A stretch of DNA of 64,000 bases from Candidatus Latescibacterota bacterium (GTDB lineage Bacteria > Latescibacterota > UBA2968 > UBA8231): NCBI GenBank assembly GCA_965200315.1, contig OZ241362.1:2880001-2944000 (forward strand). The letters run 5' to 3'. Shown one piece after another: positions 9,642 to 55,795 of this stretch. The position numbers were made by a program, and so were the translations under genes. The number at the start of each line of letters is the position of its first letter. The first letter of the stretch is position 1. The notes below the pieces were generated by a model, which was not told the DNA's origin, did no database searches, and was given only the letters and a program-made list of their open reading frames with translations.

Positions 9642-10649
9642 ATGGCCAAAGACAAAACGCGACCCAAAGACAAAAGTCGCACCCGCAAAAAACTCCGTGT
9701 CGCCTTCATCGGCGCTGGTGGTCGCGCCCTGATGGTCCACTACCCTTCACTGCGCGACATTCCCGAGGCCCAACTAGTCGCCGTCGCCGAACTCGACGAA
9801 CAGCGCCTGCACAAAACCTGTGACCTCTACGACATCAAAGGCCGCTACAGCGCCTACCGCCAAATGCTCGAGTGCGAAAGACCCGACGCGGTTTACGCCA
9901 TCATGCCACCGCACCACCTTTTCGACATCTGCGCCACCGTTATTGAACACGGCTGCCATCTCATCATCGAAAAACCCGCCGCCGTTACCACTGAGCAAAT
10001 TCGCCAACTCGCCGCTTTAGCCCGCCGCCACAAAGTCCTGACCGGCGTCGCCTTTCAACGCCGTTTTGCCCCCGTCATTCGCCGCGGCAAAGCGCTGTGC
10101 GAAAAACGCGGTATTGTGCATACTGCCCACGCCAGCTTCTACAAAAACTGGGTCGGCGGCACTCCCTACTATCGCGGAGCTTTGGACATGCTTACCTGCG
10201 ACGGCATCCACGCCGTCGACACCCTGCGCTACCTGTGCGGCGGTGAAGTCGAATCCGTCGCCAGCGACTCGCGTCGCCTCCACGCCGACCACTGGAATGT
10301 CCACCTAGCCCTAGTCCGTTTCAGCAGCGGGGCCACCGGACTCTTGCTCAACAACTTCATGGCTGGCCGACGGATATTCAGCGTCGAGGTCCATTCTCCC
10401 GGCATCTCCTTCTTCGGCGATCCTGAAGAAGGCGGCCAGCTCTACGCCGACAACAAAACCGAGCCCATAGACGAATTGGACCCTACCATCTTGGCCGGCA
10501 GCGCAGAGGACTATCGAGCCTTCGGCCCCTACGATATCAACCGCCACTTCGTGGACTGCATGTTAAAGGGAAAAGACCCTGAGACGAATTTCGACGACGC
10601 GACCAAGACCATGGAATTGGTCGACGCAGTCTACAATTCGCAAATTTGA
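9642..10649 (+). CDS. Gfo/Idh/MocA oxidoreductase
   Basis: VAFIGAGG, IEKP, FQRRF, DGIHAVD. Confidence 0.9.
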   Translation: MAKDKTRPKDKSRTRKKLRVAFIGAGGRALMVHYPSLRDIPEAQLVAVAELDEQRLHKTCDLYDIKGRYSAYRQMLECERPDAVYAIMPPHHLFDICATVIEHGCHLIIEKPAAVTTEQIRQLAALARRHKVLTGVAFQRRFAPVIRRGKALCEKRGIVHTAHASFYKNWVGGTPYYRGALDMLTCDGIHAVDTLRYLCGGEVESVASDSRRLHADHWNVHLALVRFSSGATGLLLNNFMAGRRIFSVEVHSPGISFFGDPEEGGQLYADNKTEPIDELDPTILAGSAEDYRAFGPYDINRHFVDCMLKGKDPETNFDDATKTMELVDAVYNSQI

Positions 10650-10691
10650 TCAGCACTGTCCGCGTTAATCAACGCTCTTAAAGGCAAGTCG

Positions 10692-11096
10692 TCACTCGGC
10701 GACGCATCGCCCATCCCTATACGCCAAAACCGGCTCGTTGGGCACTGAGCACTCCGAAATATACCCATAGCGCTCATTCATCTCAGCTTCAAAGGCGTTA
10801 TACGCTGTTAGCTGCTCGGCTGGTGCTGTAGAATCGGTGGACGAGGCGGAGTAAATTACAAACTCCCAAGGACCGCCGCAGGGCTTGGAGCCCAAGCCCG
10901 AGTAGCGACAGTCCTCAATTGACGATCCCACAGCATCGCCGACGAGCGCGTCGATTTCCCGCCGCATCTCCGCTAGCTGTGCCCGGTCGCCTTCCTCGGT
11001 TTGCTGGCCGTCAGTGGCATCTCCTGCGACAGGACCCGAGCCGCCACAAGCAAGGAGGGAAACGGCGATCAATGCTGCCGCAACCAAGTATCGCAT
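10692..11096 (-). CDS. Small Cys-containing lipoprotein
   Basis: Lipobox LLAC; GSKPCGGPWEF..YS and ISEC..GRC cysteine pattern; start moved to MRYLV. Confidence 0.75.
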   Translation of the reverse strand: MRYLVAAALIAVSLLACGGSGPVAGDATDGQQTEEGDRAQLAEMRREIDALVGDAVGSSIEDCRYSGLGSKPCGGPWEFVIYSASSTDSTAPAEQLTAYNAFEAEMNERYGYISECSVPNEPVLAYRDGRCVAE

Positions 11097-11129
11097 GGTC
11101 TTCCTCTCCGTTAAAACTGTGCAGGGCAC

Positions 11130-12095
11130 CTAACTTGCGGAACGGTTCCCCCACCGCGTCGCGATAACTGCATCCATGAAAATCTGCCCTAGGTGAAACA
11201 CAATACAAGGTATTGCTATCAATCCCTTCTGTTCGGGCGACACCACTGAATCCGGCAAAAATGCCAGCACGGTCATCGCCACCGGCAAGGTCTTCTGGCT
11301 CGCCATCAGCACGACGGCCTTGCGCCCCGCCGCTTCGAGCTGTAAAAGCGCGCAAGCACCGCCGTTGAGCAGCAGGTAGAGCGCGTGGATTGCCAATCCA
11401 GAAACCACCAGAATCAACAAGCTCGCAGGTTCTATCTGGGCTAGCCGCCCGGAAGACTCGCTGAATTTCATCCACGGAATCGAGATCAGCGCCGCGTTGC
11501 TGGCCAAAGTCAGCCGCGAGCGCTGGGCATCGATCCAATCGACGGCGAAGCGCCGCAGATACTTGCCGACGCCCAAGGGCAGCAAGATCGAAAGACAAAG
11601 TTTGGCGAACAGCTCGCTAGCCGAAAACTCGACTTGGCCTAGGGAACTCAGCAGATGCGCCAACACGAAGGGCACCGTGAAGATGCCGGCGATATTGGTC
11701 AGCACTGTCAAAAGCAGGGCGAGCGCTACGTTGCCTCGGGCCTGCGCCGTCAGTGCCACGCCCGAGGTCAGGGTCGTCGGCATGCAGCAGAACAGGGCCA
11801 GACCGAATTGGAAGGCGGGCTCCATCGGGAGTTGGAATGCAATCGCCGCACCGAGAAAAGGCGTGACGAAGAGAATCGAAACACATCCCCAAGACGTCGC
11901 CTTCCACGCGGCGAGGGCGGCGTGGACTTCGTCGGTCTTTAGCATCAGCCCCGAAAGAAAAAAAATAAAGCTGACGGCGATGTACTGAGTGGGCAACTCG
12001 GCCATGTACCTGCCCGGCGTCGGGAAGAAGGAGCCGACCACGGCCGCGATTACTAGACCGATGGGAAGGAATTGTCGCAGTAGGAAACCTAGCAT
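11130..12095 (-). CDS. Bile acid:sodium symporter family (SBF_like/BASS4-like) transporter
   Basis: IFFLSGL, PTTLTSGVALT..A.GN, SQKTLPVA. Confidence 0.88.
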   Translation of the reverse strand: MLGFLLRQFLPIGLVIAAVVGSFFPTPGRYMAELPTQYIAVSFIFFLSGLMLKTDEVHAALAAWKATSWGCVSILFVTPFLGAAIAFQLPMEPAFQFGLALFCCMPTTLTSGVALTAQARGNVALALLLTVLTNIAGIFTVPFVLAHLLSSLGQVEFSASELFAKLCLSILLPLGVGKYLRRFAVDWIDAQRSRLTLASNAALISIPWMKFSESSGRLAQIEPASLLILVVSGLAIHALYLLLNGGACALLQLEAAGRKAVVLMASQKTLPVAMTVLAFLPDSVVSPEQKGLIAIPCIVFHLGQIFMDAVIATRWGNRSAS

Positions 12096-12107
12096 GATTT
12101 TCGTTGT

Positions 12108-12137
12108 AAAAAAGGGCCGGACGATGTCGTCCGACCC
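12108..12137 (-). terminator. Rho-independent terminator after the gap-mntR unit
   Basis: Minus strand GGGTCGGACGA-CA-TCGTCCGGCCC followed by TTTTTT. Confidence 0.7.
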
Positions 12138-12221
12138 AATCCGAGCAGCTTGGCGATCTGGCCCTTACTCACTTGCTGCTAGCGCAACTGTGGGGAAGCC
12201 GTAGATGTCCTCGCAGAAGTT

Positions 12222-12707
12222 TCACGCTTCCACGTCGCTATTGCTATACTCTAGGGCACCTTCGCGGAACATCTGGAGAAATCCGTTGGCCGCCGGTTCT
12301 TCCGAAAACAACACGCGCAAAAAACGCACCAACCGCATCCGCGCTTCCGTGCTGATTAGGTGCTCAACCTTACAGGCGTCGATCATTGCGTCGTCCTCGT
12401 CCATGCCGAGGGCGTCTCTGAGGAACCGCTGCACGACCAAGCGCGTTTCCTCAACCTCCTGCACTACTTTCAAGCCCTGTTCGGTAAGTTCGAGAAAGCG
12501 GTTGAGGTCCTCTTGCACATAGCCGCGTTCCTTGAGGTGCTTCATGGCCGTCGAGACGCTGCCTTTGGTGATGCTCAGGTGCTTGGCAATATCCGAGACG
12601 CGGGCGTAGCCATGCACCTCGCGCAACTCGTGGATCGCCATCAGGTGATGCGCGGCACTGTGGCTTAGTTCGTTTTCTTCGTAGGCTCTCCAGACCTCCT
12701 CAAACAT
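12222..12707 (-). CDS. mntR: DtxR/MntR family metal-dependent repressor (possible UGA read-through to 12165)
   Basis: ARVSDIAKHL..TKGSVS HTH, LTEQG, DACKVEHLIS. Confidence 0.88.
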   Translation of the reverse strand: MFEEVWRAYEENELSHSAAHHLMAIHELREVHGYARVSDIAKHLSITKGSVSTAMKHLKERGYVQEDLNRFLELTEQGLKVVQEVEETRLVVQRFLRDALGMDEDDAMIDACKVEHLISTEARMRLVRFLRVLFSEEPAANGFLQMFREGALEYSNSDVEA

Positions 12708-12755
12708 GCGTTCCGCCTTTCTGCCTCCGCTTAAGTCGCAGGGCCTCGTATTGAG

Positions 12756-13754
12756 TCATTGGCCGAGCTTTTGTAGCAAATCCACACAGCGATTGGAGTA
12801 GCCCCATTCGTTGTCGTACCATCCGAGGATCTTGACCATATTTCCTCCGAGAACATTCGTCGATAGCGCGTCGAAAACACACGAGTGCGGGTTGCCTACG
12901 ATGTCGGCCAAGACCAAAGGCTCCTCAGAGTACTCGAGGATGCCAGCCAGCGAGTTGGCAGCAGCAGCTTTGAACGCCGCGTTGATTTCTCCGGCATCCG
13001 CTTTGCTTTTGAGTTCAGCCGTAAGGTCGGTCAGCGAACCGTCGGGGGTTGGTACGCGGATGGCCAAGCCATCGAGCTTGCCGTCGAGCTCGGGTAGCAC
13101 CTTACCTACCGCGGCCGCGGCTCCCGTAGTTGTGGGCACCATCGATGCCGCGGCCGAGCGCGCCCGCCGCATGTCGCTGTGCGGAGCATCGAGCAGGCGT
13201 TGGTCGCCGGTGTACGAGTGGATCGTATTCATCATGCCTTTGACGACGCCGAATTTTTCGTGTAGGACTTTGACCATGGGGGCTAAACAGTTGGTCGTAC
13301 ACGAAGCATTGGAAATGATCGCATGATCGGCTTGGATGGCGTCGTCGTTGACGCCCATTACCACGGTAACGTCTTCGCCTTTGGCCGGAGCAGAAATGAC
13401 GACTTTGTTGGCCCCAGCGTCGATATGGGCACGAGCCTTGCTAGCCTCGGTGAAAAATCCCGTTGACTCCAGCACCACTTCGACCCCCAAATCGCCCCAA
13501 GAAAGGTTGGCCGGGGCGCGCTCGGCCAAGATGCGAATCGCTTGGCCATTGACGATCAAGTCGTCGCCAGCAACCTCTATCTCGCCGGCGAAGCGGCCAT
13601 GGGTGGAATCGTATTTGAGCAGATGGGCAAGTGTGTGGGCGTCGGTTAGATCGTTGATGGCTTTGATCTCGATGCCACCTTGCTCGACAGCCGCCCTGAA
13701 CACCAAGCGACCGATTCGACCAAAGCCATTAATAGCGACAGGTAATCCTCCCAT
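12756..13754 (-). CDS. gap: Glyceraldehyde-3-phosphate dehydrogenase type I
   Basis: [28 protein letters not shown]. Confidence 0.98.
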
Positions 13755-19684: not shown

Positions 19685-19838
19685 AGGGGTCGAGCCTCGG
19701 CCAAGCAGCGCAGGGCGACCAAGAACAGGACGATGGGAAGCGCCCCACGGCGTTTTGCCTGTGGGAGATATTGAGCTATGGTTGCCGCCGGCGCAGATGG
19801 TCGGCAGGGTGGCCCGCAATACAGAAAGGGAACTGAAG

Positions 19839-21278
19839 ATGGCCAAGGAGAAGAGAGCGACGACGAAGAGAAAGACCGCTATCAGCGCCTCGGCAGGCGT
19901 CATCGAGCTGGGCGACAGGCGCGAACTGTTCGTCGACGACTACCTGATCGAGCGGCTGCGCGGCGTCGAGCTGCGCCTGAACAAGCCGGTGCCGCGGAAC
20001 GTGGCGATCGACCACGACGCGCCGTGGGAGGGCAACACCAGCGCCTACCACACAGTGTTCAAGGACGGCAAGCTGTTCCGCGCTTACTACCGCGGCTCAC
20101 ACTACGACCCGTCAGGCAACCTCTACCGGCCGGTCGTGTGCTACGCCGAAAGCCGCGACGGTATCGAGTGGTACCGGCCGGAACTGGGCTTGGTCAACTA
20201 CCAAGGCTCAACGCGCAACAACATCGTCTGGGACGGCATCGGCGCGCACAACTTCGCTCCCTTTCGCGACTTTAACCCCGACTGCCGGGAGGGGGAGGAG
20301 TACAAGGCTCTGGGCAGCGCACTCGCACGCACGGCTGACGAGCAGGCCCTCTACGCCTTCAAGTCTTCGGACGGCGTGCATTGGAGCCTGCTGGCGGAGA
20401 AGCCGGTGATCACCGTGGGTGCCTTCGACTCGCTCAACCTCGCCTTCTACGACCCGCGGCGCGGCTGCTACGTCGACTACCACCGCGACTCCATCTACCC
20501 CGGCGGGGAGCGCGTGCGCAACATCATGACCTGCACCTCGAAGGACTTCCGCCGCTGGACGAAGCCGCAGTGGCTCGACTTCGGCGACGCGCCCCTCGAG
20601 CACCTCTACACAAACGCGGTGACCTCCTACCACCGGGCCCCGCACATCTACATGGGCTTCCCCAAGCGCTTCGTGCCGGATCGCAGAATGCCCGGCAACA
20701 CCGCCCGCGGCGTGTCGGACGCCGTGTACATGACCAGCCGCGACGGCCTGCACTTCAAGCGCTGGAGCGAGGCTTTCGTGCGACCCGGGCTGCAGCCGGA
20801 ACGCTGGGAGAACCGCAACAACATGACGGCCTCGGGCATTCTGGAGACGGCCAACGACCTGCCGACGGCACCGAAGGAGTTGTCGATCTTCACCACCGAG
20901 GGTTACTACCGCGGCGAGGCCTGCCGACTGCGGCGCTTCACCCTGCGCTTGGACGGCTTCGTGTCCGCCAACGCGCCGCTGAAGGGGGGCGAGCTGATCA
21001 CGCGGCCCTTCACCTTCGCCGGCGGTGCCCTGAGCCTGAATACGAGCACCTCCGCCGCTGGCTCAGTGCGCGTCGAGATCCAAGACGGCGACGGCAAGGC
21101 GCTGAAGGGGTACACCCTGCGCGACTGCGACGAGATCTACGGCGACTACCTAGACCGTATGGTCACCTGGAAGGGCCAAGCCGACGTCCGCGGACTGGCC
21201 GGCAAGCCAGTGCGCCTGCGCTTCGCCCTCAGCGACGCCGACCTGTACAGCCTGCAGTTCACGCCGCTGCCTGTCTGA
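19839..21278 (+). CDS. Five-bladed beta-propeller glycosidase-like protein with C-terminal beta domain
   Basis: ELFVDDYLI, Asp-box repeats (SRDGIEW, SSDGVHW, SRDGLHF), LRLDGFVS. Confidence 0.7.
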   Translation: MAKEKRATTKRKTAISASAGVIELGDRRELFVDDYLIERLRGVELRLNKPVPRNVAIDHDAPWEGNTSAYHTVFKDGKLFRAYYRGSHYDPSGNLYRPVVCYAESRDGIEWYRPELGLVNYQGSTRNNIVWDGIGAHNFAPFRDFNPDCREGEEYKALGSALARTADEQALYAFKSSDGVHWSLLAEKPVITVGAFDSLNLAFYDPRRGCYVDYHRDSIYPGGERVRNIMTCTSKDFRRWTKPQWLDFGDAPLEHLYTNAVTSYHRAPHIYMGFPKRFVPDRRMPGNTARGVSDAVYMTSRDGLHFKRWSEAFVRPGLQPERWENRNNMTASGILETANDLPTAPKELSIFTTEGYYRGEACRLRRFTLRLDGFVSANAPLKGGELITRPFTFAGGALSLNTSTSAAGSVRVEIQDGDGKALKGYTLRDCDEIYGDYLDRMVTWKGQADVRGLAGKPVRLRFALSDADLYSLQFTPLPV

Positions 21279-21352
21279 GAGAGGGACAACCTAATGCCCC
21301 AACATGATGCCGTGGGCGTTCAGAACTCTCTAGCGGAAATTTTCTTTTAAAT

Positions 21353-23068
21353 TCAAGGATAGTGATAACCTTCATTGTTGATATTAAATGGCCATATCTT
21401 CAACATAAGTCTGAGTCGAATAAGGGCACCTTTATCCAGTTCTCCTATATCTAGTTTCCTTTTTAACGATGGATCATCAAAATCCAATCTTTTACTCGCC
21501 GTCAAAAACCCTTCTTTAAAAATGATGTGGGTCAGGTGGCTTGCGATTAAATAATATCCTTCATTTGAAGGATGCAGGTGTTCAACAATCATTGGTTTGC
21601 CAATTACATTTTTGGGATCGTAATCTTGGAATGTAGTTTCAAGATCTGCTAATATGATGTCTGCTTCCTTGGCAACATTTTTTATGGTTTCGTTTACCTC
21701 TGACGGGGCTCTGATCGGTAAAATATCCAAGTCTCTTGCTCTTGTGAAGGATCGTTTGGCTTTATCTTGATATCCCCGAGCAAGGTAAACATGACCCAGA
21801 TCAAAATGAGTTTGGGCGTGATCTGGGAAAAGTTCAATTGCTGTTTGGTAGATACGTTCCGCCTCTTCCAGATGATTTTGTTCAAATGCAGCCTTACCAT
21901 TCTTTAATAACTGTTGCCATTGGGTAAGATCGAGGGAAGGAGGCGGTGGTTCTGAATCAAATGGGCGCCAATCTCGAAGATTGGAAACAATTGTCCCTAA
22001 AATCACAGGGATTTGATGGCGCTTTGCAGTAGAGATAATCTCGTGGAGATTTCCCCTGAAATTCTCAATAGCTTGCTCTCGTAGAATTTGTTCTCGCAGT
22101 TTGGCCTCGTCCTTCATCATCTGCTTGACCTTAGCTCTTGTGGGTTCGGTGCCATGGGCCATAGCATTGCGAAGCTCACGAAGGTTTTTGTATGAATTCG
22201 ACATTCTCCCCTTCGCCTTCTCATATTCATCCTTTGCGTCTTGGCGATCCGCGTACCGTGCGGGATCTCCTCCACGCTGGGAGACGAGATAGGTCACAAA
22301 GGCTTCTTGTGCGTAAATCGTGGCTCGGAGATAGTCGCGCCTTTTTAGGTAATCCTCGGCGAGTTGGCTCTGCCGGCGCTGTGGAGTCTTTTTGTGACTC
22401 CAAGCCAATCGGTCTTGAAGAGTTAACTGAAACAGGCGAGCGACCCCAGTGAAGGGGTCAGATTTAAGGGCATCGTCGATACTCTTGATCTTTTCTTTGG
22501 CAAGAGATTCTTGAGAGGTTCGTTCAAAAAAGGCAGCCTTGTGCATGGGAGCCGCCAAACTAAGGTTCGCATTTGGCAGCAACTCCGTAAAAACTCCGTA
22601 GTCGCCGGTATGTTCAAACTGACTCAAGGATCGGACCCAGTCGAACAGGTGCAACAGTCCCTTCAGATCATACACCGTTCCGGTCTTGGTGTCTGGGTCG
22701 TAAAAGCCATACCAGAGTGCTTGCAACGTAATGTTCTGAACGGCTTGGAGATAAACTCCCGCCACCATCGCAATCATGGGCAAATGGCGAAAGGCGTGAG
22801 AAACGTCCAAGGAAAGCTCGGCGACGTCCTTGGTTGCCTTCGCCATAGTGTGCAGAACGTCGATTCCTAGGTTAACCACTTCTACCGTTTTATCCACGTT
22901 GGAACGTTTTAATAATTCGTGAAGCAGCTTGGGAAACGGCCCTCTTGTCGTCGATCCCCCAAGACAAAAGATGCGAAAATCCTTTTCGGATTTCTGCTGT
23001 TTCATGCTTATCTTGGGAATTAGATTTTTAAGCATTGGATTATTAATTGAATAATATTTTCGGTACAA
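21353..23068 (-). CDS. Chimeric ORF: SGNH N-part / Csx1-like (TIGR02221-type) partial CARF + HEPN / TPR + SGNH C-part; 5'-truncated
   Basis: FCLGGSTT and VVNLG (SGNH); LDVSHAFRHLP, YLKRRDYLRA, RNAMAHG (CARF-HEPN); TPR (AQTHFDLGHVY); EHLHP (SGNH block V). Confidence 0.8.
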   Translation of the reverse strand: MYRKYYSINNPMLKNLIPKISMKQQKSEKDFRIFCLGGSTTRGPFPKLLHELLKRSNVDKTVEVVNLGIDVLHTMAKATKDVAELSLDVSHAFRHLPMIAMVAGVYLQAVQNITLQALWYGFYDPDTKTGTVYDLKGLLHLFDWVRSLSQFEHTGDYGVFTELLPNANLSLAAPMHKAAFFERTSQESLAKEKIKSIDDALKSDPFTGVARLFQLTLQDRLAWSHKKTPQRRQSQLAEDYLKRRDYLRATIYAQEAFVTYLVSQRGGDPARYADRQDAKDEYEKAKGRMSNSYKNLRELRNAMAHGTEPTRAKVKQMMKDEAKLREQILREQAIENFRGNLHEIISTAKRHQIPVILGTIVSNLRDWRPFDSEPPPPSLDLTQWQQLLKNGKAAFEQNHLEEAERIYQTAIELFPDHAQTHFDLGHVYLARGYQDKAKRSFTRARDLDILPIRAPSEVNETIKNVAKEADIILADLETTFQDYDPKNVIGKPMIVEHLHPSNEGYYLIASHLTHIIFKEGFLTASKRLDFDDPSLKRKLDIGELDKGALIRLRLMLKIWPFNINNEGYHYP

Positions 23069-23088
23069 CTCCTGATTAAGTTGGTAAG

Positions 23089-23865
23089 AGGCTGACAGTC
23101 GGACGAACGGATGAGAGACTGATTGCAGGCAACGGGGAGAACACGACTAACTACGTGCTCTTCACCTTGGAACGGGACTATCCGGGTCTTGGCAGGCTGA
23201 AGATCTACGAGAACTTCAGAATCGCGAAAGACGACATTGAGAACGATCTTCGCCAGTGGAACGAGTTCGAGAGGCGTAACGTTCCAACCGTCGATCCCCT
23301 AGCGGCTCAGGACACGTGGATAAACTCTACGTTCATGAGCTTCAAGTACACCAAGATCGAGGATGTGAATTTCGTGAGTAAGTTCAAATACGATCGCTGG
23401 CACCAGAACGAACGACAGCCCGATCTGCGCGAGGACTATACCTTCTTCGGTCTCATCAACAAGGTGGACCTCGAGCGCAAGATCGCCTATGTCGATCTCA
23501 TGCCGAGAGTAAAGAACGAGCTCAGGCTGGAGGCCCCGGCGCTCAAGTCTGATCCCAAGCGCAGGGAAGACACGCTGCAACTCTCCCTGCTGGCGCGATG
23601 GCCGCTGTTTTCTTCTTCCACCATGCAGGCCGGTGTGGAGTACACGATCTTCAACCAACTCCGCAAATCGGAGACCGCGGTCAAGGAGGGACTGCTCGAC
23701 GATTTTACCGAGATCGTCGGAGCGATACAGTTCTCGAACGTCACCAACTACCTAGGTTACCGGCTGTTGACGAACATGGGTATGAGATTGACCAGAAGAT
23801 CGCTAGATGACGAGACCGAGACGGGCAGTGTGTCCTTTGCCACGGTGTACGCCGGTCTAGATTAG
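23089..23865 (+). pseudogene. C-terminal fragment of a large, probably outer-membrane beta-strand protein
   Basis: Frame is open upstream of the called GTG (RLTVGRTDERLIAGNGENTTNY) with no proper start; amphipathic strands; ends SFATVYAGLD. Confidence 0.55.
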
Positions 23866-23897
23866 GGCATAGACGCGAGCTTGAGCGGAGGTACGCG

Positions 23898-25571
23898 ATG
23901 TACGCTTTTTTTCTTTTTTACGGAGCACCAGTGGCGAAAGCAGGCAGCCTAGCGCTCCTTTTAATTTGCACAGGCTGCGGACCGCAGGATGAAAATCCCA
24001 CGGTCGCGGAGGTTGGAGAGCGAACGATCACTGTACAAGACGTGCGGGATTTCCTCGCCAAACTGCCCGAGCACACCAAGGACGAAGAAGCCGGGAAGGA
24101 GCCGTTGAGGTACCATCTACAGACCATGATCGACATGGAACTGCTGCTGATGGAAGCCCGAAGCGAGGGCCTCGAGAAGAGTTCCCCCTACCTGACTAGG
24201 GTGATCCAGATCAGGAAGGCGAAGCTCGTCAGTGAGTACGAGCGAAGGACGATCGACGCAACGGTAGAAGACGGTGAAGTAGAAGAGTACATAGACCGGG
24301 AGGGGCTCGACCGCGCGATCAGACTGGGCGACATCCTAGTCGCCGACCGCGAGACGGCAGAGAAGGCCGCGAGGGAGATCGAGGGAGGGGCGAGCTTTGC
24401 GGACGTCGCGAGGAAGCGGTCAATGCACAAAGAGACCGCGGCCCGGGGCGGGGACACAGGTCGGTTCACCACTAGGTACGAGATGATTCCCAGCCTCGCC
24501 GACAAGCTGTTCGGGCTCGCGGTAGGCTCGGTGTCGGAGCCAATTCAAATCGGCGGCCGATACGTCGTCTTCAAGATCCTCGATGAAACGACCGCTCAGT
24601 TCAATCCGCGGCAGCGGATGAAAATCGCGGAGGAACTCAAACGAAAGAAGCACGGAATCGCGAAGGCCGAGTTGGTGACGAAATTGAGGGACCAATACCG
24701 CCTCGAGCCGGTCCGAGATGGCATAGCCGCTGCCGTCGAGGCGCTGCGCCCCGGTGCGGCGAACGACGGCCACGACTCATCTGCGATTGTACTCTACCAG
24801 TACGACGGCGGAGAGATCACAGCTACCGACCTCATCGGCGCGGCCAAAATCCGCAAGGGCAATGTCTTGGAGACACTCCGCGACGCCGAGCAGGTGGTCT
24901 ACTTCGTCGAGCAGTACATCATTCCGGACGTGATGATTCAGGAGGCGGCTGTGCGCCAAGGTATCGATCGCGAAGAGGCGGTGGCCCGATGGCTCGAAGA
25001 GCAGGGAAAGCAGCTATTGGTAAGGGTCCTCAGATCCAAAGTGTTAAAGGAGAGAGTGACTATCACGGAAGACGACCTGCGTCAGTACTACGAGGCCAAC
25101 GCCGAGAGATTCCTGCATCCCGAACAGACTGAGGTCCAGGAGCTCCTCGTAAAAACAGAAATAGAAGCACTGCGGTTGAAAGGGATGATCGAGGACGGTG
25201 CCGCTTTGGGCTACTTGGCGAAGAGACATTCGCTTCGATCGCTCGAGGTGCGCGATGACGAGGGTCGATTCCACGTGCATCGTTACGAATCGCCCCAGTT
25301 CGGCGGTTTCGTGGAAGCTGCGGTTGAGGCCGAAATCGGCGAGCTCACGGGACCAGTCAAGGTGCAGGAGGGCTACTCCATCTTCAAGGTGCTCTCCCGG
25401 GAACGCAAGCGCGAGACCTTCGCCGAAGCTGAGATGAGGGTCCGATCGCAGTTCAGACGCCAGAGACACCGGGACACGTTCAACGAGTACATGGAGGAAC
25501 TGTACAACCGCTACGAGTCAGAGGTGTCAATTCACGAGGACAGGCTTGCGGCGGCGTTTGCCGTGCGGTAG
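23898..25571 (+). CDS. Peptidyl-prolyl cis-trans isomerase, two parvulin domains (SurA/PrsA-like lipoprotein)
   Basis: Lipobox-like CTGC, FADVARKRS..TAARGGDTG, VSEPI, second domain LAKRHS..GPVKVQEGYSIFKV. Confidence 0.85.
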   Translation: MYAFFLFYGAPVAKAGSLALLLICTGCGPQDENPTVAEVGERTITVQDVRDFLAKLPEHTKDEEAGKEPLRYHLQTMIDMELLLMEARSEGLEKSSPYLTRVIQIRKAKLVSEYERRTIDATVEDGEVEEYIDREGLDRAIRLGDILVADRETAEKAAREIEGGASFADVARKRSMHKETAARGGDTGRFTTRYEMIPSLADKLFGLAVGSVSEPIQIGGRYVVFKILDETTAQFNPRQRMKIAEELKRKKHGIAKAELVTKLRDQYRLEPVRDGIAAAVEALRPGAANDGHDSSAIVLYQYDGGEITATDLIGAAKIRKGNVLETLRDAEQVVYFVEQYIIPDVMIQEAAVRQGIDREEAVARWLEEQGKQLLVRVLRSKVLKERVTITEDDLRQYYEANAERFLHPEQTEVQELLVKTEIEALRLKGMIEDGAALGYLAKRHSLRSLEVRDDEGRFHVHRYESPQFGGFVEAAVEAEIGELTGPVKVQEGYSIFKVLSRERKRETFAEAEMRVRSQFRRQRHRDTFNEYMEELYNRYESEVSIHEDRLAAAFAVR

Positions 25572-53984: not shown

Positions 53985-55124
53985 ATGACGCCCGACCTAA
54001 AAGGGGCCGATGCCCTGCTGATGATCGACAGCAGCGAACGCTGCGCCAATCTATTCTACGCCACCTGCTTTCGCGCCCCCGACCCCTTCGTCTTTCTGTG
54101 GACCCCCAACGAAAAGATCATGCTCGCCAACAGCCTTGAGATCAACCGCGCACGCGACCAAGCTAGCGTCGATCGGGTATTGTCTTATACCCAGTACGAG
54201 AGGCAGGCCAAGGAAAGGGGCCAAGAGCGGCCCAAGAGCAAAGCCGTCTTGTTGGAACTTTTGCGCGACCTCGGCTTGGCGAAGCTGCAAGTGCCTGCTG
54301 ATTTTCCCCTTGGTACGGCCGATTTTCTGCGGGGGGAAGGCATCGAATTGGCCATTGCGGCCGAGCCGCTCTTTCCCCAGCGCAGAATCAAGGACGCCAC
54401 AGAGATCGAGAATGTGCGCCGGGCGATGCGGGCCGCCGAAGCAGGCATGGAGATGGCGATTGAAGGGCTGCGCACAGCCGATGTGCGCGACGGTACGCTC
54501 TTTCTCAACGGCGACGTACTCACTTCAGAGCGATTGCGGCGTATGGTGCATCAGACACTCATGGACTGCGACAGCATTGGCGAACATACCATCATTGCCG
54601 GCGGCGACCAAGGCTGCGATCCGCACCAAGTGGGCTTTGGGCCTTTGTGCGCTGGCGAGACCATCATTATCGACATTTTTCCGCGCGATGAGACGAGCGG
54701 CTACTACGGAGACCTGACGCGGACCGTCTGTAAGGGACCGGCCTCCAAACCGATGCAACACCTGTACGAAACCGTGCTGGAGGCTCAACAATTGGGCTTA
54801 GACCACATCCATCCGGGTGCCGAAGGCCACCTTATTCACGAGGCAATCCAACGGTTTTTCAGCGATGCCGGCTACGAGACGGGAGAGAAAGACGGCTATA
54901 TGCAGGGCTACATCCACAGCACGGGGCACGGGCTAGGCCTAGAGATCCACGAGGGGCCGAGGATCGGCCCGCACGGCGACATGCTTGAATCAGAGCACGT
55001 CGTGACGATGGAACCGGGGCTCTACTACCGAGGCTTGGGGGGCGTGCGGATCGAAGATACGGTCGTCGTTTGCGCCGGCGGCTACGAGAATTTATGCAGC
55101 CTGCCCAAGGTGCTCGAAGTGTGA
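53985..55124 (+). CDS. Xaa-Pro peptidase (M24)
   Basis: DIFP..GYYGDLTRT, HSTGHGLGLEIHE, EPGLY..GGVRIED. Confidence 0.92.
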   Translation: MTPDLKGADALLMIDSSERCANLFYATCFRAPDPFVFLWTPNEKIMLANSLEINRARDQASVDRVLSYTQYERQAKERGQERPKSKAVLLELLRDLGLAKLQVPADFPLGTADFLRGEGIELAIAAEPLFPQRRIKDATEIENVRRAMRAAEAGMEMAIEGLRTADVRDGTLFLNGDVLTSERLRRMVHQTLMDCDSIGEHTIIAGGDQGCDPHQVGFGPLCAGETIIIDIFPRDETSGYYGDLTRTVCKGPASKPMQHLYETVLEAQQLGLDHIHPGAEGHLIHEAIQRFFSDAGYETGEKDGYMQGYIHSTGHGLGLEIHEGPRIGPHGDMLESEHVVTMEPGLYYRGLGGVRIEDTVVVCAGGYENLCSLPKVLEV

Positions 55125-55170: not shown

Positions 55171-55795
55171 TTATGAGACGGCACAAATTCACCCTTGGCT
55201 CCCTAGTCATTGCCGCTGGCTTGATCTACCTTTTTGCTGCCGGCGTCCAACAGTCAACAGCGACCCATATGACGCTGCAAACTCTGATGGAGGGATTATG
55301 AGACGGCACAAATTCACCCTTGGCTCCCTAGTCATTGCCGCTGGCTTGATCTACCTTTTTGCTGCCGGCGTCCAACAGTCAACAGCGACCCATATGACGC
55401 TGCAAACTCTGATGGAGGGATTATGAGACGGCACAAATTCACCCTTGGCTCCCTAGTCATTGCCGCTGGCTTGATCTACCTTTTTGCTGCCGGCGTCCAA
55501 CAGTCAACAGCGACCCATATGACGCTGCAAACTCTGATGGAGGGATTATGAGACGGCACAAATTCACCCTTGGCTCCCTAGTCATTGCCGCTGGCTTGAT
55601 CTACCTTTTTGCTGCCGGCGTCCAACAGTCAACAGCGACCCATATGACGCTGCAAACTCTGATGGAGGGATTATGAGACGGCACAAATTCACCCTTGGCT
55701 CCCTAGTCATTGCCGCTGGCTTGATCTACCTTTTTGCTGCCGGCGTCCAACAGTCAACAGCGACCCATATGACGCTGCAAACTCTGATGGAGGGA
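55171..55795 (+). repeat. Perfect tandem array, 5 x 125 bp, of the ccmE 5' end
   Basis: ATGs at 55173, 55298, 55423, 55548, 55673; units identical by eye; the fifth runs into full ccmE. Confidence 0.97.

Follow-up and report, generated by a model that had tools for sequence, protein, structure and literature searches.

A csx1 fragment inside a truncated SGNH-TPR gene of a sponge-associated Latescibacterota bacterium: a probable remnant of Ku-independent end joining

Results

A single open frame made from two genes

The subject of this work is an open reading frame (ORF) in a 64,000-nucleotide stretch of DNA (the window) from a Candidatus Latescibacterota bacterium. The frame occupies window 21353..23068 on the minus strand, is unbroken over 571 codons from a TTG start (597 codons from stop to stop), and joins parts of an SGNH(GDSL)-TPR gene to a piece of csx1, a gene associated with type III CRISPR systems. 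The genome to which the window belongs (G000) is metagenome-assembled as one contig (C1) of 5,359,245 bp, with a completeness of 94.7% and an estimated contamination of 7.8%. Comparison at the DNA level places the borders of the parts at 22863/22864 and 22085/22086, giving the following arrangement.

22864..23068, minus strand: 5′ remnant of the SGNH-TPR gene (chimera residues 1-69, corresponding to native residues ~65-133)
22086..22863, minus strand: csx1-derived block of 778 bp (chimera residues 70-328, corresponding to Csx1 residues 129-385 of 397)
21353..22085, minus strand: 3′ part of the SGNH-TPR gene including the stop codon (chimera residues 329-571, corresponding to native residues 234-476)

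The 5′ remnant retains SGNH block I (FCLGGSTT, residues 34-41) and block II (VVNLG, 64-68). The middle block contains LDVSHAFRHLP (87-97), LWYG (118-121) and RNAMAH (300-305; window 22171-22154), and the 3′ part carries TIVSNLRDW (359-367), TPR repeats (391-447) and the block V-like motif EHLHP (496-500). The string LREQILREQ is found at residues 324-332. GC content is 0.38 in the 5′ remnant (22864-23068), 0.517 in the middle block (22086-22863) and 0.404 in the 3′ part (21353-22085), and the reference values are 0.592 for the genome and ~0.65 for the DNA adjoining the chimera. A first-pass annotation made from the letters of the window had already described one 571-codon ORF with three blocks; every motif and coordinate that it gave proved correct, its hand counts of GC in single 60-nt lines (19/60, 21/60 and 33/60) were reproduced exactly, and its borders at 22864 and 22085 coincide with those found here by DNA comparison.

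The same annotation assigned the middle block to the Csx1/TIGR02221 nucleases, and profile searches agree. The block scores 84 bits against TIGR02221 (E 1.5e-23), above the curated cut-off of 76.25, over positions 111-217 only of the 218 in the model. It also matches the DxTHG model TIGR02549 (E 6e-8, residues 86-110, which include LDVSHAFRHLP) and the PADLOC model CARF2--CARF_HEPN PDLC01825 (E 7.9e-83, model 120-373 of 382), and the PADLOC matches of the chimera are confined to this part. The ends of the chimera match Pfam TPR models, and they match Lipase_GDSL over its last quarter only (profile 149-208 of 208), unlike an intact SGNH-TPR orthologue, which covers profile positions 1-207. SGNH hydrolases share conserved blocks I (GDS-type Ser), II (Gly), III (GxND) and V (DxxH); blocks I and II and a V-like block are present in the chimera and the region of block III has been replaced, so it does not have the makings of a complete SGNH/GDSL hydrolase. 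The genes on either side are not cas genes, being a syntenic 507-aa ORF (19755..21278) and the remnant of a 936-aa gene.

The middle block is a copy of a resident csx1 gene

A second copy of chimera residues 69-337 (97% amino acid identity) lies 101 kb away in the same genome, at G000:C1:3003976-3004770. It belongs to an intact csx1 gene of 397 aa that stands at the end of a complete type III-B operon, ordered cmr1-cas10-cmr3-cmr4-cmr5-cmr6-csx16-csx1. In DNA, the block matches G000:C1:3003998-3004769 over 778 bp at 98.7% identity, with four substitutions and one 6-bp in-frame indel, and the identity ends abruptly at both ends of the block. The next closest Csx1, among the best 120 of 321 matches in a search of 5.8 billion proteins, is at most 72% identical. 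Because of this gap in identity, sequence comparison points to the resident csx1, or a near-identical allele of it, as the donor. This type of csx1 occurs in one of 30 other genomes of the genus (67% identity), with weak CARF-like matches in two more, and in none of the 30 was a second csx1-like copy found. The donor gene is in its operon; the chimera is neither in nor beside a cas operon.

Two side observations concern the resident system. The native Csx1 of G000 (3003958-3005151) has His in place of Tyr179 (in LWYGFY), a residue that is nearly invariant in 66 relatives and is retained in the chimera copy and in a native-locus contig of sequencing run X3 (see below). The first-pass annotation recorded neither cas genes nor an array in the window, of which 17-28 kb was read here; the donor operon and six CRISPR arrays with 398 spacers in total are located elsewhere on the same chromosome. 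Among these is the array at G000:C1:129082-147659, and one array has ~240 repeats. Perfect matches to three spacers (36-38 nt) are found on the chromosome beyond the arrays, at ~213121, 477096 and 4657264, and suggest that the system targets its own chromosome or that mobile elements reside there.

An 8.2-kb deletion removed the start of the SGNH-TPR gene

The outer parts of the chimera come from a gene for a 476-aa SGNH(GDSL)-TPR protein with orthologues in metagenome-assembled genomes of the same genus (P0003, P0011, P0025 and others). Eight of the 24 other same-genus genomes drawn have an intact orthologue (88-93% amino acid identity), and one more has part of the gene, at the end of a contig. 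The C-terminal part of the chimera is 88-94% identical to the relatives in amino acid sequence (94% to P0003), nucleotide identity to the orthologues is 94-96% over window 22860-23088 and ~92% over the 3′ part, and the 3′ flank is syntenic at ~90% nucleotide identity.

Against this background two lesions can be seen. In the first, native residues 135-233 (~99 codons; 297 bp in relative G012), including the block III motif YMGHNEIYG, have been replaced by the csx1 block. In the second, homology ends at window 23088, and the sequence from 23089 onward maps ~8 kb further off in all five relatives tested; the deletion measures 8,248 bp against G012 and 8,156 bp against G013. Two further features follow from it, given here with reference to the orthologous locus L027.

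23088..23089, no strand: deletion junction (window 23088 = L027 3897; window 23089 = L027 12146)
23155..23865, plus strand: 236-aa ORF, the C-terminal remnant of the 936-aa gene, 5′-truncated by the 8.2-kb deletion

The deletion took native codons 1 to ~58, including a hydrophobic N-terminal stretch that the alignment marks as a putative membrane anchor, and the divergent upstream region. It also took a 311-aa gene, two genes with CHU_C/FlgD_ig C-terminal domains and ~700 codons of the 936-aa gene. Window 23089-23400 matches L027 12146-12457, inside the ORF 10112..12922 that encodes the 936-aa protein and is intact in relatives; the 236-aa ORF left in the window has no Pfam or PADLOC match. 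A gene with a PpiC domain occupies 23898-25571. The chimera and this remnant now stand head to head, each without its own start region. In comparison with its orthologues, the chimera therefore has neither the native full length (~476 aa) nor the hydrophobic N-terminus of the group. Loss of the 5′ end and upstream region, together with disruption of the catalytic domain, is what would be looked for in a gene remnant; disruption of the frame, as in a pseudogene, is not seen, the 571 codons containing no stop or frameshift.

In the relatives, the two genes with FlgD_ig and CHU_C domains (CHU_C being a type IX secretion signal) precede the 936-aa gene. The native SGNH-TPR gene has a GC content of 0.40-0.42 (0.35-0.41 at third codon positions) between flanks of ~0.65, is syntenic in at least eight same-genus genomes (orthologous loci L009-L016 and L034-L046), and has diverged about as much as its flank (~90% nucleotide identity). 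It resembles a foreign gene whose GC content, across species, has failed to approach the host value.

Junctions and repair functions

The left junction of the block shares one nucleotide between the parents (minus strand ...GGAA-T-CGACG..., SGNH gene to the left and csx1 to the right) and the right junction none (...GAACAAAT joined to TCTACGAG...). The deletion junction is also blunt, with no shared nucleotide (...GGTAAG joined to AGGCTGAC...). The string LREQ-I-LREQ at the right junction, previously taken for a near-duplication, is not one: each parent brings its own native LREQ, in the contexts ...KLREQIKQFL (csx1) and ...HPLREQAIENF (SGNH gene).

Neither Ku (PF02735), nor DNA_ligase_A_M (PF01068), nor RVT_1 (PF00078) was found in the 94.7%-complete genome, in searches for which control genomes gave matches. 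Canonical non-homologous end joining and capture of complementary DNA (cDNA) were set aside as mechanisms on the strength of this result for Ku, the ATP-dependent ligase and the RVT_1 reverse transcriptase. Because the junctions have 0-1 nt of homology and these functions were not found, we infer that a stray csx1 fragment was captured by a Ku-independent form of illegitimate end joining.

Two candidate explanations for the origin of the lesions were tried and rejected. The first was breakage by CRISPR self-targeting: the 398 spacers were run against 19-27 kb of the window and, in relatives, against the intact loci together with the 8.2 kb deleted here, and among the matches listed the best were 20 nt with two mismatches or 15 nt exact, which leaves the idea unsupported. 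The second was a general habit of patching in this genome. Self-comparison gave 117 repeat pairs, and among pairs of about 880 bp or more there was no other ectopic transplant of a gene fragment; the check set aside a 969/880/604-bp family, a 1,188-bp inverted pair, a 321-bp pair and shorter pairs, and the longer repeats are IS-like or rRNA-like judged by copy number alone (3.6 kb in three copies, 1.85 kb in five). Two of the repeat pairs look like gene conversion between paralogues: a glnA pair (1,475 bp, 99.25% identity, matching the ORF almost exactly; G000:C1:808584-810058 and 1241158-1242632) and a TraF_2-like pair (897 bp, 99.9%; G000:C1:386641-387537 and 1503296-1504192). Elsewhere in the window, 55171-55795 is a tandem array of 5.0 copies of a 125-bp unit at 100% identity. 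It lies just downstream of the ORF 53985-55124, its period is not a multiple of three and its unit seems to hold a gene start; the array would be the product of very recent amplification, or else of faulty long-read assembly.

The chimera in natural samples

Logan contigs of four runs (X1 and X3, and the RNA runs X5 and X6) were compared with window 20500-24500, and what follows refers to the contigs listed. Run X1 (study P1) has a contig for each of the three joins. The first (19 kb, depth 20.4) extends out of the 3′ flank and stops 30 letters beyond 22085/22086, the second (255 bp, depth 21.3) covers the DNA between a point 30 letters within the block and 23088, and the third (60 bp, depth 18) crosses 23088/23089. 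In X3 (a sponge metagenome of study P2), the junction contigs are 60, 59 and 60 bp long, with depths of 79.5, 89.3 and 80.5 and a flank at 156. The unreplaced form is present in this run as well, as a joint that connects 22085 directly to 22863 without the block (depth 48), and an 8.3-kb contig that goes on into the undeleted sequence (depth 60.3) represents the undeleted form. Two haplotypes thus coexist, one replaced and deleted and the other intact, with lesions of matching depth. A minor contig of X1 also continues into undeleted sequence at 23088/23089, at a depth of 4.2 compared with ~18 for the dominant deleted form; the sample behind X1 is not clonal at this locus.

The junction contigs reach 30 letters beyond the join in either direction (29 in one direction for the 59-bp contig), one short of a 31-letter rule for bridging, and no single contig contains the whole 778-bp block with both flanks. 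We take the structure to be real in nature because junction contigs occur in two studies and the assembly is one long contig. A chimeric assembly, which the first-pass annotation had raised as one of the things that would undo its reading, is at odds with junction-specific contigs in the DNA runs of both studies.

Of the words sampled, fractions of 0.80 (X5) and 0.71 (X6) occur in the RNA runs. Their contigs represent the native csx1 locus (10.6 kb and 6.1 kb), with others leaving 22085 into the native SGNH sequence, and none has a chimera junction; it is apparently the other haplotype that these runs represent. The presence of contigs as long as 10-11 kb in RNA libraries suggests DNA carry-over. 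A scan for sigma-70-type promoters found none on the minus strand between 23068 and 24000, and an AGGAG upstream abuts the TTG start with no spacer.

Age, constraint and uniqueness

The native csx1 contigs of X5 and X6 differ from the chimera copy at two common sites, with one more in X5 at 22630. The change at 22142 is synonymous, and that at 22588 puts Thr in place of the nearly invariant Ala220. Like the chimera copy, the contigs have the 6-bp 'insertion' and, at other variable sites, Gln and Tyr. Because of this agreement, most of the differences between the chimera copy and the csx1 of G000 must have arisen on, or pre-existed in, the native allele; the His at Tyr179 is one of them. In the SGNH parts, the changes private to G000 comprise nine nonsynonymous and 12 synonymous, a ratio like that of 11 intact orthologues from counts too small to decide; relaxed selection on the SGNH remnants was set aside as a proposal, there being no difference from the intact orthologues. 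The events are too recent for decay or selection to show.

A search for the same fusion elsewhere had been put forward as a check in the first-pass annotation, and it found none, making the fusion a singleton in the libraries searched. No protein with both parts is among the 53 matches to the C-terminal part, or among the best 120 of the 321 matches to the Csx1 part in the 5.8 billion proteins (lengths 314-1000 aa). Nor is one among the best 150 of 14,271 matches in a library of 1.84 billion representatives, where the top match is a plain SGNH-TPR protein at 447 bits, a score that a true fusion should outrank. An exact search for the right-junction word in JGI metagenome contigs gave no match.

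Predicted structure of the product

An AlphaFold2 model of the native Csx1 (66-row alignment; mean predicted local distance difference test score, pLDDT, of 92.8) has eight CARF strands followed by a helical HEPN domain at 196-393. Foldseek matched it to 8y6z (E 4e-12), 6qzt and 4eog, with E values from 4e-12 to 1e-5; a sequence search of solved structures, made with the native Csx1 alone and with a 16-row profile, gave no match in either case. The fragment in the chimera begins at Csx1 residue 129, inside helix 124-137, and is without residues 1-128 and the last 12. Five of the eight CARF strands (3-9, 24-27, 33-36, 51-56 and 112-117) are absent, as is the N-terminal loop. The chimera does not have a complete N-terminal CARF domain with its ligand loop (motif I), which lies at residues 10-17 of a solved relative (PMC11317161). 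The first-pass annotation correctly listed three losses: the first part of the CARF domain, SGNH block III and the native 5′ end. Retained are CARF motif II (DxTHG-like), in which H150, R153, L155 and P156 are invariant in 66 sequences, and, from the HEPN domain, all helices up to residue 385 and the R-x4-H motif (RNAMAH), in which R357, N358 and H362 are likewise invariant.

A model of the chimera has a pLDDT of 77.3 and a predicted template modelling score of 0.57, with residues 70-135 at a pLDDT of 32-68. Its confident HEPN and TPR regions should not be read as evidence of a folding hybrid, because each parent family supplies covariation of its own. In the product predicted from these models the SGNH fold would be split, the CARF domain reduced to about three-eighths and unable to bind cyclic oligoadenylate (cOA), and the HEPN domain without its activating sensor. 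We would therefore expect the product, if made at all, to be inactive.

Discussion

Our results make it probable that the ORF at 21353..23068 is a young and probably silent gene remnant that arose when Ku-independent illegitimate end joining captured ectopic DNA. In the course of events that we envisage, the ancestor would have been an ordinary 476-aa SGNH(GDSL)-TPR gene with a hydrophobic N-terminus, whose locus was broken and then rejoined without homology in the G000 lineage. About 297 bp (native 135-233) would have been lost, and a stray 778-bp piece of the resident csx1, 101 kb away, captured as 'filler DNA' to close the gap; it would have gone in with sense orientation, and its two ends would have kept the frame by chance. 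The 8.2-kb deletion would have cost the gene its first ~58 codons and its upstream region, and taken the neighbouring genes as well. The frame would still be open because the events are recent, only two substitutions being private to the copy. The parentage of the parts, the junctions, the deletion and the natural existence of the haplotype are direct observations, on which we build a probable repair pathway, a probable chance origin of the reading frame and a probable lack of function. In kind this is a known thing, a chimeric gene remnant from illegitimate recombination, and no new defence architecture. The first-pass annotation had offered an inert recombination product as one of two alternatives, and it is this one that is favoured by the local copy of csx1, the split domains and the lost start. 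Alternative end joining (A-EJ) can reportedly incorporate unrelated DNA, as Chayot et al. are said to have described in 2010. Capture of linear fragments at breaks is reported for yeast (PMC1976456).

Several observations weigh against this interpretation. A-EJ in E. coli is described as depending for the most part on microhomology of at least 2 nt (PMC11297215), compared with the 0-1 nt seen here. A near-repeat lies beside the right junction, with one copy from each parent and 10 of 12 nt in agreement, and in a post hoc test a match of this quality was found beside random breakpoint pairs in 41 of 20,000 trials. Blunt joining alone leaves this near-repeat unaccounted for. Homeology at the right junction may have helped to bring the ends together, yet both copies are still there. 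The sense orientation and the correct frame at both junctions would arise by chance about once in 18 such events, so selection for an open frame is possible. The chimera haplotype is the majority in X1 and makes up about half of X3. The overhang of the junction contigs falls short of the 31-letter rule, yet their length is that expected of k=31 unitigs between branch points. Finally, the four runs were compared as contigs, among those listed, the promoter scan covered the sigma-70 type only, and transcription is still possible.

The ORF could be alive. Fortuitous promoters in the AT-rich DNA would drive expression of a soluble protein that forms heterodimers with the resident Csx1 and attenuates the cOA-triggered RNase, an idea to which we give little credence. 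In a linked variant, the fusion could at first have been harmful and the 8.2-kb deletion its suppressor. The first version, if true, would describe a host-made, Cas-derived brake on type III immunity, seen only a few substitutions after its birth; either would be a natural example, with a date attached, of domains shuffled through the blunt capture of part of a gene, in a host in which Ku was not found. In its specific form, as an expressed decoy or dominant negative whose HEPN surface pairs with native Csx1 so that cOA-blind heterodimers damp collateral RNase activity, we regard the proposal as unlikely. The complete set of HEPN helices with R-x4-H, the frame open at both joins and the abundance of the haplotype in two studies would all suit a decoy. 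So would the behaviour of the solved relative Csx1-Crn2, whose monomers dimerise through the HTH and HEPN domains even without CARF (PMC11317161), and the His at Tyr179 of native Csx1 could hint at altered selection on the pathway. However, the native 5′ end is gone with no promoter-like site found upstream, no RNA contig among those listed has the chimera junction, and the CARF remnant and split SGNH domain would be likely to misfold. The fusion is moreover a singleton with no sign of conservation, and one of its two private changes falls at the nearly invariant Ala220.

It is similarly unlikely that the patch was made by template switching, of the kind known as microhomology-mediated break-induced replication (MMBIR) or fork stalling and template switching (FoSTeS), or by capture of csx1 cDNA, in place of end joining. 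A two-part event at one locus, combining a deletion with a templated insertion from 101 kb away, is the kind of complexity that template switching can account for, as is the 10-of-12-nt homeology at the right junction; the insert is also in the sense orientation and an internal part of a single transcript. Template switching typically leaves microhomologies of 2-5 nt, whereas the junctions here share 0-1 nt, and the near-repeat was kept as two copies and not collapsed. Capture of cDNA meets the further difficulty that no RVT_1 reverse transcriptase was detected in the genome.

The other alternative of the first-pass annotation, a new TPR-associated, cOA-independent HEPN toxin or defence effector, fares worse, and we consider it very unlikely that the product acts as a toxin now or did so briefly, including the variant in which toxicity led to selection of the 8.2-kb deletion as a silencer. 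In its favour, R-x4-H is intact in an in-frame ORF, and the depths of the replacement (~80-89) and the deletion (80.5) in X3 are about equal, so that the two travel together as expected of a suppressor deletion. However, RNase activity was almost absent from a Csx1-Crn2 construct without CARF (residues 182-563), even at 125 nM and in the presence of cyclic tetra-adenylate (cA4; PMC11317161). Loss of CARF thus silences that relative and does not make it constitutive, which argues against a cOA-independent toxin. The intermediate haplotype, with the chimera and no deletion, is not among the records listed, and there is no evident immunity or antitoxin partner, the adjacent ORF being the remnant of an ordinary neighbour and the PADLOC matches being limited to the Csx1 part. 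The claim of a new effector is also hard to reconcile with a block that is a 98.7% copy of the resident csx1, with both parental domains cut through their cores, with a gene start lost to the deletion and no promoter-like site upstream, with a fusion that is a singleton, and with RNA-run contigs among which, as listed, the chimera junctions do not appear.

That the chimera is an artefact of assembly or strain mixing and not one DNA molecule, as might be suspected from a metagenome-assembled contig with 7.8% estimated contamination, from the co-occurrence of several haplotypes and from the want of a listed contig spanning the block and both flanks, is highly improbable given three separate junction contigs of matching depth in runs of two studies, an insert that re-enters the same gene in frame 297 bp on (unlike a mis-join), a copy that differs from native csx1 by four substitutions and a 6-bp indel and so is no collapsed repeat, and a 560-aa product called on the 5,359,245-bp contig in the protein collection.

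As a defence system the chimera would carry little weight: it is best seen as a probable by-product of DNA breakage, for which the label 'TPR-associated HEPN toxin' should not be kept. The value of the chimera lies elsewhere, as a clean natural example of gene scrambling in bacteria in which the parents are known to the base, the ancestral locus is kept in sister genomes, and the derived and ancestral haplotypes coexist in one metagenome. For an uncultured, sponge-associated lineage it offers a usable case for the study of Ku-independent capture of ectopic DNA and of the material from which domain shuffling starts. It also carries a caution for annotation, in that the ORF passes the 'equivalog' cut-off of TIGR02221 yet contains about two thirds of a Csx1 within another gene.

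Of the processes already described, capture of filler DNA and Ku-independent A-EJ resemble the present case in combining a non-homologous deletion with an unrelated insert at junctions of scant homology, here in a genome where Ku and a LigD-type ligase were not found. It differs from them in its junctions of 0-1 nt, and in setting: the capture literature that we retrieved is eukaryotic, and this case comes from a wild sponge-associated population and not from a reporter assay. The Csx1/TIGR02221 RNases (8y6z, Marinitoga Csx1-Crn2; 6qzt, S. islandicus; 4eog, P. furiosus) share with the chimera the DxTHG-like motif, the HEPN helices and R-x4-H. The chimera differs from them in that it is without residues 1-128 and the last 12, lies inside another gene and away from cas, and has as its block a copy of the resident csx1 and no separate lineage. 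Functional fusions, such as Csx1-Crn2 (PMC11317161) and the PADLOC architectures CARF_HEPN_CSX16, _CSX3 and _CSX20, likewise join Csx1 to other domains; they are conserved families in which a whole CARF-HEPN protein carries a whole extra domain at one end, whereas here a partial Csx1 sits within a disrupted host domain and no second example was found. A further comparison is with the 476-aa SGNH-TPR orthologues of the genus: the chimera is without native residues 1 to ~58 and 135-233, but its ends are 88-94% identical to theirs and it occupies the syntenic locus.

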